Source of the DNA: Azolla caroliniana
Lineage: Eukaryota; Plantae; Polypodiophyta
Assembly (NCBI GenBank): GCA_043228905.1
Contig: JBHGNT010000003.1
Coordinates: 23,126,001-23,190,000 of the forward strand
Length of the DNA: 64,000 bases
Reading direction: 5' to 3'
In this document: one piece after another, positions 34,906 to 37,544 of the stretch
Numbering within the stretch: position 1 is the first letter of the stretch
How the letters are laid out: every line of letters starts with the position of its first letter
The notes under the pieces: model-generated
Told to the model about the DNA's origin: nothing
Seen by the model: only the letters and a program-made list of their open reading frames with translations
The model's database searches: none
Translations under genes and position numbers: made by a program

Positions 34906-37544
34906 TGTTATCCGTATAGGTGTATGGGATAGATATGGTGTAATTTGTATTGTGTGTAAAGTCTAAGGTGTGTAATATGTAGTATGTATTCGAGTGTATG
35001 AGGACGAGTATGTGTGAGCAAATGCACAATTATGTGCATGTGACAAGAGTGTAACGGTCATTATTTACCATTACATTATGTACTATAAAAACCCCTTATC
35101 GGGCACATAAGGAATATAGTTTTCCCCCCCTCATTTTTGTGACATCCTTGTTTCACTCTCTCCTTCTTTCCCTCTAATGTAATCCCTAGGTCCTTCTTTC
35201 CCTCTAATGTAATCCCCCTGGAGGGGGTGAAGCCTAGGGGGTGAATCCATTCTAGGCTTCACCCCCCACTCCAGCAACACTTTTGGCATGCCCGAAAGGA
35301 CGACCCTCCCTTGAGAAGAAGTCACGTGTCCCTCCCTTGCTCTCCCTCTCCGACACTAATCTCTCTCTCTCTCTCATTGCATATCTGTGTTGTTGTGTGT
35401 TGTCTCTCCCCTAACTCATCGTTTCACTTTTGGGATGGAAACCCTAGACCCTCGGAAGAAGAAGAAGCTGAAGGAAGAAGAAGGTAGAAGAAGTGTTACC
35501 TCTTAGAAGAAGGCGCCCCTCAGGGCTTCTTCTTCCTCTTTCAGGCCATCCCCCTTCAGAGTCTCGTCACCGTTCAGTGCTTCACCATCGCCAGCAAATG
35601 GACACTCTATTGGTACAGCAGCGCGAAACGACCGTTTCCTTCCCCCTCCCCTGCAAAACACATCCAAGCCGCCCTCTTCAAACGACATGGCGCAGCGAAA
35701 GCTAAAGAAACAGCCAAAGAAGCGGCTATGGTATCTGAAGCTCCCTCTGCTGAAGGCCAAGATATGGTCATTGATTAATCTCTTGAGAAAACCTTTGGCT
35801 ATAGTAAGAATATCAGTTTTAACTTGGAGATGAGATCGGTAGAGGTCATTTTGCACAGAGTCTGGTATCTTTAGATCTGTGTTGAAGACTGAGCCGAGTT
35901 TTGATGTAGCACCATGGCCAATTGTATCAGCTAGGGCAAAGGATTTTGTGAAGCGTCTCCTTACAAAAGATCGCCATAAGAGAATGACAGCCGCTCAGGC
36001 ATTGGCGCATCCTTGGATACGTGGACATCAAAATATTCCTCTTGATATATTGATATTCAGATCTGTTAAATCTTACCTTCATGCTTCAACTGTGAGACAG
36101 GCAGCGTTAAAGGCATTCTCTAAAACATTATCTTGAGATGACTTGTTTTACTTACAAGCTCAGTTTACGCTCTTGGATCCGTGTAAACATGGCCGAGTAT
36201 CGCTGAAAAACTTTAAAACTGCTCTCTTGAAAAATGCAACCAGGCAATGAAAGATTGGAAGATGCTTGGGATGATCACATCTATTGACGGGCTCCATCTC
36301 AAGATGGGTTTTAATGAATTTTGTGCAGGTGCTATTAGTGTGCCGCAATTTGAAGGGCTGGAACGATGGGAGCTGCAATTACACAGTACAGTGCCTACGA
36401 AATCTTCGAGATGAAGGGAAATCGAGCTCTGATGGGTTTCTTATTGGCTGCAAAATGGACTTTTAGTTCTCTATGTTACTATTAATCTCTTTAGTCTTTA
36501 CTATGGCTAGAATCGAAAGGCTGGAATTTTAATTGAAGAATTGAAGAGAGAAGAGAGGGGCATTCAGAAACTCGAGGGTCAATAGCAAAATTTCAGATAT
36601 TTGAGGGTAGAGAGGATAATTTTGAAAAGTCCAAAAACGAAGAAAGAGAAAAGAGAATGGGGCAGAGCAGAAAATTACAATAACTCGAGGGCATGCACTT
36701 GAATTTCAAAAGTCCGAGGGTAGAAGACAAAATTTCAAAAGCATAAGGGCATAGTATGGAATTTTAGAAACTTGAGAGCACGCAAACAAATTTCAGAAAT
36801 AGAAGGGCATGACACGAGATTTCTAAAACTTGAGGGTACTTAATATAATTTTAGAAAAAAACTTGAGGGGCAAGACATAAGTTTTCGGAAACACAACTCA
36901 TCACTATACATACTAAGCAAGAAAAACATATCGATATCTATATATACACACCCACATACACCCACAATTATTGATAAACCTAAATAATGGTACCATAGTG
37001 GATAAGACGATTGGTGTGCGATCCAATCGTGCGATTATGCTGATCGAACGAGAAGGTTCGTGTAAAGCTAGCTTCAATCGTCGAGCAGTAACCCGGTTGA
37101 AGAATTTCTAACCGTGAGAGAAGACTGATGGAGTTCCGGTCAACAAGAATTTTTTCGGCATAAGCTTGTAGGTCCGACGTGCAATGCACTATCCCACAGG
37201 CGTGCCAGGTGTTATCCGTATAGTTGTACGTGATGGATAAGATGTAATGTGTATGGTGTGTAATATATAATATGTATACGAGTGTGTGAGGATGTGTGTG
37301 TGAGCACATGCACAATTATGTGTATGTGACAAGAATGTAACGTTCGTCTTTTTGTAACGGTCATTATTTACTGTTACATTATGTACTATAAAAACCCCTT
37401 ATGGGGCACATAAGGAATATAGTTTTTTTCCCCTCATTTTTGTGTGATCCTTGTTTCACTCTCTCCTTCTTTCTTTCTAATGTAATCAATCCCCTTGGGA
37501 GGGGGGTGAAGCCATTCTAGGATTCACCCCCCACCCTAACAACA
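34906..37544 (+). mobile_element. Non-autonomous LTR element (TRIM/LARD-like, 2.6 kb) carrying a kinase retrocopy
   Basis: LTRs 34906-35279 and 37210-37544 (TGTTATCC...CAACA); TSD CCCCT; excision restores copia RT STPVNRNLKL; no recognisable gag or pol inside. Confidence 0.93.
35560..36460 (+). pseudogene. CRK: Processed, internally deleted CDPK-related kinase (CRK) copy
   Basis: [40 protein letters not shown] fused directly to [66 protein letters not shown]; stops and frameshifts present; no introns seen. Confidence 0.9.

Follow-up and report, generated by a model that had tools for sequence, protein, structure and literature searches.

A sense copy of tRNA-Arg(UCU) in place of the polypurine tract across a clade of Ty3/gypsy LTR retrotransposons

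Throughout a clade of Ty3/gypsy elements the polypurine tract (PPT) is replaced by a tRNA site; the replacement is real, clade-wide and backed by direct genomic traces, in a known class of element for whose putative priming mode no description was found. The sequences suggest that host tRNA-Arg(UCU) anneals to newly made minus-strand DNA and primes the plus strand in place of the PPT, a reading to which we give a probability of roughly 0.75; that a host tRNA would be the plus-strand primer at all, on DNA or on antisense RNA, is considered highly probable. It is also probable, with slightly less assurance than the annealing itself, that this is a plant clade without PPT priming in which both cDNA strands are started by tRNAs, the three-part site being derived from a reverse-transcribed tRNA and some families using two tRNAs (tRNA-Arg(UCG) for the minus strand and tRNA-Arg(UCU) for the plus strand). 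In the relevant sections of PMC5371799, PMC6317226 and PMC3185511 a PPT-primed plus strand is a step shared by retroviruses and LTR retrotransposons; PPT priming is given as the rule in those of PMC5371799 and PMC13332604, and the word 'tRNA' is absent from the main text of PMC3185511. A literature search that covered few subscription papers and bioRxiv supplements found no account of a PPT replaced by a tRNA site; genome papers or repeat databases may contain one.

The window (the whole 64,000-nt stretch of DNA analysed) contains a 2.6-kb non-coding LTR element at 34906-37544, all features of which are given here on the + strand. It is inserted in a copia RT reading frame and flanked by a 5-bp target site duplication (TSD), CCCCT, at 34901-34905 and 37545-37549, as clean as the initial annotation had described it; the interrupted copia RT frame continues beyond the right copy. 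The 5' LTR (34906-35279, TGTT...AACA) and the 3' LTR (37210-37544) are 90% identical over 318 aligned columns. The 5' LTR has a TATA box at 35084-35091 and a U5 hairpin at about 35218-35274; the strong hairpin noted earlier is real (z -5.3 in LTR1, -4.0 in LTR2), but the length quoted for it is due to a 12-nt duplication in LTR1. The spacer CTTT (35280-35283) leads from U5 to a minus-strand primer binding site (PBS) for tRNA-Arg(UCU) at 35284-35329, in which pairing to the 3' 11 nt of the tRNA is followed by complementarity to the T arm and anticodon arm; cofolding of this site with the tRNA yields a ddG of -35.1 against -3.0 +/- 2.4 for shuffles (RNA parameters). CTTT is also the spacer in 28 of 30 loci at the junction searched (TTTT and CTTG once each). 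The U5-PBS spacer is long and family-specific, at about 4-11 nt (L107, L125, L137 and window 35280-35283). The interior carries a captured, intronless host protein-kinase mRNA fragment at 35853-36434 (Pkinase E 1.2e-7), interrupted by stops and frameshifts and taken by us, from its motifs, to be CDPK-related; it is spliced, as exons of the genomic paralogues L324 (five) and L323 (two) align to it end to end without introns. Degenerate repeats of about 29 bp, common to the element's family, fill 36561-36857 in the 3' non-coding region. A sister non-coding element (L035:2116-2751) has an HSP90-like ATPase reading frame, and the host mRNAs captured within the family appear to differ. A 54-bp tandem repeat lies at 32253-32522, upstream of the copia element that hosts the insertion; a search for tRNA genes in the window returned none.

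Since the promoter box and the captured mRNA both lie on the + strand, the 5' motif is identified as the PBS, and the place of a PPT is taken by the 3' motif. LTR2 is preceded by no purine tract, and on the other strand there is just AAAAG ahead of LTR1; judged as an LTR retrotransposon the element has TG...CA direct LTRs, a TSD and a PBS matching host tRNA-Arg(UCU), and lacks the PPT. The initial annotation, which reported PBS-like motifs at both internal ends and no PPT, was thus correct in substance and in its coordinates (35284-35301 after LTR1 and CTTT; 37192-37207, then GG and LTR2), although both sites were under-called: the 3' site reaches back to 37168, and tRNA pairing at the 5' site extends to about 35329. 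The likeness to tRNA-Arg that it proposed holds as well, as both sites match tRNA-Arg(UCU), genes for which are present in the 523-Mb genome G000.

At the 3' site, tRNA-Arg(UCU) is copied in sense from position 49 to position 76, CCA included, in three parts: positions 49-58 (T-stem 5' strand and T loop) at 37168-37177; a 13-nt hairpin inserted directly after A58 at 37178-37190, family-dependent in sequence with the stem kept; and positions 59-76 with CCA and without C66 at 37191-37207, which is a PBS when read on the minus strand. A 2-nt spacer, GG (37208-37209; NG across the lineage), separates CCA from U3. When the tRNA is cofolded with the minus strand of this site, 10 pairs, a bulged C66 and 7 pairs are predicted, then the hairpin loops out and pairing resumes from 58 to 49, with a ddG of -19.5 against -2.8 +/- 2.2 for shuffles (RNA parameters serving as proxy). 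Among 179 distinct 3' sites, for which conservation counts are partly forced by the search patterns, the insert is 13 nt long in 134 and 14 nt in 41; its stems (GTGC/GCAC, GTAC/GTAC, GGAC/GTCC, GGGC/GCCC, GCGC/GCGC) change on both sides with pairing kept. Mismatches inside the 13-nt hairpin (16 G-T and 13 A-C over distinct inserts) do not discriminate by polarity between an RNA and a DNA hairpin. The common variants T55>C (66/179) and G53>A (25/179, a change that deamination also yields) both keep G-U/G-T pairing with the tRNA, while position 58 is loose. In 164 of the 179 sites no purine run longer than 4 occurs within the last 30 nt.

A degenerate form of the 3' motif followed by a 2-nt spacer and TGT has 807 matches in G000, and the reversed control has 0; the motif is not due to chance. 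The site is carried by 30/30 loci with the window's junction, a count biased by the presence of the site within the query, and 20 of the 807 sites taken with 10 kb of upstream sequence belong to several unrelated LTR families, gag-pol elements included. Choice by RT only gave 20 elements, nine with the 3' LTR in view, and in these the site was found in 9/9 and a PPT in 0/9; the site stood ahead of none of 18 5' LTRs of RT-chosen elements. Choice by LTR only gave 30 LTR starts, ten of which have the site; the sequence ahead of the other 20 is unrelated, and inspection by eye showed no purine tract in it. Copia controls from the same loci had a Met PBS and a normal PPT in both cases (2/2). The site also extends beyond this genome: a metagenome scan returned at least 124 loci, the full architecture being present in 117 of 118 scorable sites among the matches listed, many of which have LTRs just 70-85% like, or unlike, the G000 LTRs examined. 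Contig depth peaks at the 3' site in four of four sequencing runs (four organism labels), with dozens of loose ends on each side; viral contigs gave 0 matches. A six-copy tandem array of this group's LTR, with a 517-bp period, lies at G000:C1:19,258,626-19,261,224 (L086-L091).

Coding relatives are about 9 kb long, with gag-PR-RT-RH-INT order (RT-RH-INT seen in L117), a 5-bp TSD and an extra ORF in the 3' part, which ends about 35 nt ahead of the 3' site. A 'Tat-type' reading is not supported, and Tat membership was rejected, as no additional archaeal-type RNase H (aRH) was found in the segments scanned, between PR and RT (L107), between RH and INT (L117) or after INT (L123, L110); no chromodomain follows the integrase in L123:3482-4624. 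Phygy/Selgy membership (4-bp TSD, PBS for tRNA-Trp or tRNA-Ala) was likewise rejected on the 5-bp TSD and tRNA-Arg found here. The lack of aRH and the 5-bp TSD are as in Athila, but the PBS of the coding relatives is for tRNA-Arg(UCU) or tRNA-Arg(UCG), not for Athila's dominant tRNA-Asp/Asn/Ala. A quick RT tree (68 rows: 32 genomic RT pieces of at least 150 aa and 36 proteins) placed site-bearing RTs and environmental proteins in one clade, whereas proteins of Adiantum, Riccia, Marchantia and Tanacetum branched elsewhere; RT relatives with a named source came from Adiantum (up to 56% over the query), Riccia and Marchantia. The extra sense ORF after the integrase, in the 3' third of L107, L110, L111 and L123, has no Pfam match, and no lead scored above 0.86 in a comparison with the ESM Atlas. 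L125, L118, L074 and L313 represent a second gypsy lineage, whose RT is just 25-27% identical. Among the loci examined, none was a coding element bearing the LTR of the window's copy; the putative link between that copy and the coding clade is drawn from the common 3' site, the CTTT spacer, the TGTT/AACA ends and the 5-bp TSD, together with a similar non-coding interior flanked by the LTR of a coding family. We infer that the window's non-coding copy is mobilised in trans by coding members, and the mechanism proposed below would apply to it by homology with related families.

Traces of the putative primer were sought as junctions in which a true tRNA end (C66 present) is followed by two bases and TGT; all 11 exact matches and 30 of 37 matches at up to two mismatches were read, orientation being set by comparison with the 3' LTR start, by a downstream PBS or by direct reading. 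Eight independent junctions join tRNA-Arg(UCU) in sense with CCA (C66 present, no insert) to the U3 start: L130-132 (one event in three copies), L133, L136/137, L138, L153, L161, L164 and L166. As tRNA genes here do not encode CCA, the CCA-bearing tRNA sequence is a reverse transcript. Four of the eight copies start exactly at tRNA position 59, the other four extend to about positions 13-28, and L133 has T instead of A58; a stop or misreading by RT at m1A58 is expected on mature tRNA. The junctions carry the spacers of their elements. A C16 element (1861-aa ORF, TSD AATAG) has two LTR-LTR junctions with a perfect 18-mer and spacer AG, and its internal site differs from that 18-mer at three positions with the AG identical; the element at C2:12.74 Mb has a tRNA copy ahead of its 5' LTR with the unusual spacer TATG of its internal site; at C2:12.0 Mb the junction and the element's own site share the spacer TG. 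Since the spacer matches the element's and the preceding sequence matches the host tRNA, these are plus-strand primer-DNA junctions, which supports the suggestion of the initial annotation that a tRNA 3' end primes the plus strand.

A misjoined minus-strand primer cannot explain such junctions where the PBS is for one tRNA and the U3-side copy is of another. Two of the eight junctions lie in such families: in those of L130-132 (C2:12.0 Mb) and L133 the PBS is for tRNA-Arg(UCG), as it is in the C2:12.74 Mb element, and the U3-side copy is of tRNA-Arg(UCU); read-through copies of tRNA-Arg(UCG) sit on the U5 side in families with that PBS, and none of three matches placed this tRNA at the U3 side. 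No junction belongs to the window's own LTR family, the nearest being L133 and L166 from related non-coding families. Rejected as plus-side junctions were L134, L135, L139, L140, L150, L154, L155, L163, L167, L168, L061 and L073-L075, which are minus-side PBS or read-through copies, and L149, L158, L160, L162, L165, L169 and L170, all of them internal and L160 with one base added at the C66 position; L151, L152 and L156 were left out of the count.

Several further tRNA copies were observed. Minus-side read-through copies joined to U5 occur at L073, L074, L075, L061, L068, L317, L318 and L320; that at L073 is full-length with CCA and is called a gene by ARAGORN, and L320 is a fold-back. This RT often passes tRNA modifications, as read-through copies record. 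In L154, L157 and L168 LTRs from two different families meet head-to-head at their U5 ends via an 18-nt tRNA copy, and in L161 an 18-nt tRNA copy and U3 start are folded into a long palindrome that adjoins antisense element sequence. A young tandem array at G000:C2:12,004,000-12,019,000 (L126-L128, L130-L132; LTRs 99.8-100% identical) includes a non-coding unit in which a 57-nt tRNA-Arg(UCU) copy stands where the 3' site would be; it is a possible model of how the lineage's 3' site arose.

In the proposed mechanism, RNase H would clear the RNA and expose minus-strand DNA at the 3' site, where the tRNA would pair in three parts: 76-67, with C66 bulged, 65-59, and then 58-49, the 13-nt DNA hairpin being looped out at A58. 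RT would extend from CCA, copying the spacer and then the LTR as plus-strand strong-stop DNA; RNase H would normally take off the tRNA, and integrase would then trim the spacer. Where removal fails, the returning minus strand would copy the tRNA to modified A58 or past it, leaving the junctions described above. With 8 events against 807 sites such failures are rare: tRNA priming happens, and a sole route is not implied. The RNase H motifs D-E-D-D are intact in one coding copy. RNase H acts on RNA-DNA hybrids, and the protection of a tRNA primer needs explaining; speculatively, the bulge and hairpin keep the enzyme from cutting the tRNA-DNA hybrid too early.

The foremost alternative, considered unlikely, is that RNase H spares the tRNA-like RNA of the element itself, which then acts as a non-purine PPT, tRNA junctions then arising by an RT switch from the retained primer onto packaged tRNA; such a template switch could produce the same junctions. 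The position of the site and its 2-nt spacer match those of a PPT, the site is able to fold on itself, and L264 (one of 118 metagenome sites listed), an element-type 17-mer with foreign upstream sequence, is a candidate retained primer. However, none of 21 element-type 17-mers with a non-T upstream base had a foreign flank, all being internal (18 with the hairpin, three with small internal deletions), in a search that detects breaks at position 59 only and about three quarters of those; the RNase H-resistant mimic envisaged by the initial annotation is disfavoured on this count. Further, the RNA of the window's site shows no advantage over shuffles in folding (z -0.32), G53>A disrupts the T stem of the element's own RNA, and a primer of this kind leaves the match to one host tRNA across many families unexplained.

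Marginally less probable again is that host tRNA-Arg(UCU) is the plus-strand primer but has an antisense transcript of the 3' end as its template, the site being an ordinary PBS and the two strands starting on two RNAs. This accounts for the same junctions and wobble pattern and avoids an RNase H-sensitive primer; however, it requires a second packaged transcript in every cycle and every family, and the promoter box, gag-pol and captured mRNA all lie on one strand. Very improbable is pairing of the 5' and 3' sites to circularise or self-prime the RNA, as first suggested: 9-11 bp are complementary in the window and the L123 family, but families with a tRNA-Arg(UCG) PBS retain a tRNA-Arg(UCU) 3' site, which contradicts a general function, nothing in a 5' region of the L123 type pairs with the conserved 49-58 segment, and such pairing gives the plus strand no primer; it may be a side effect. 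A reversed reading of the element, or its origin as a chance join of two others, is refuted, in spite of the resemblance of the 3' site to a canonical PBS on the minus strand, by coding relatives with gag-pol on the assumed strand, the site ahead of the 3' LTR and 5-bp TSDs, and reversal likewise yields no PPT.

If tRNA-Arg(UCU) primes the plus strand as proposed, a successful PPT-less clade would show that RT/RNase H can pick a trans-acting structured RNA as second primer, and would be a natural system for asking how a primer evades RNase H; both strands would then depend on host tRNA supply and on tRNA fragments. Annotation tools that require a PPT will misorient or miss such elements.

Among known systems, non-autonomous LTR elements of the TRIM/LARD type carry host cDNA and keep a PPT; the window element is similarly non-coding, with LTRs, a TSD, a PBS and a spliced host fragment, and differs in lacking the PPT. 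Tat/Ogre/Retand elements share the tRNA-Arg PBS and 5-bp TSD, however they have an archaeal-type RNase H, absent here in the segments scanned. At retroviral 2-LTR junctions a retained tRNA is expected at the U5 side in PBS sense, whereas here the tRNA is in sense on the U3 side. The likeness to retroviral 2-LTR circle junctions, as far as the account in PMC13332604 extends, is that unprocessed cDNA ends become visible and U3 extensions reveal the plus-strand primer. The bipartite PBS of Ty3 and Ty1, as treated in part of PMC5371799, also involves multi-part tRNA pairing, with a tRNA-related segment near the 3' LTR in Ty3; however, those segments are complementary to the tRNA in RNA and serve minus-strand initiation, the plus strand being PPT-primed. 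Closest in description are the Athila-like non-chromovirus Ty3/gypsy elements (OTA superclade, in the corresponding part of PMC6317226), which share gag-PR-RT-RH-INT order, no extra RNase H, no chromodomain, a 5-bp TSD, a length of about 9 kb and an extra 3' ORF. By the table of PMC6317226 the coding members resemble Athila except in the PBS; where Athila mainly has a tRNA-Asp PBS (supplement 3 of PMC6317226), the present clade has a tRNA-Arg PBS, no PPT and an inverted tRNA site.
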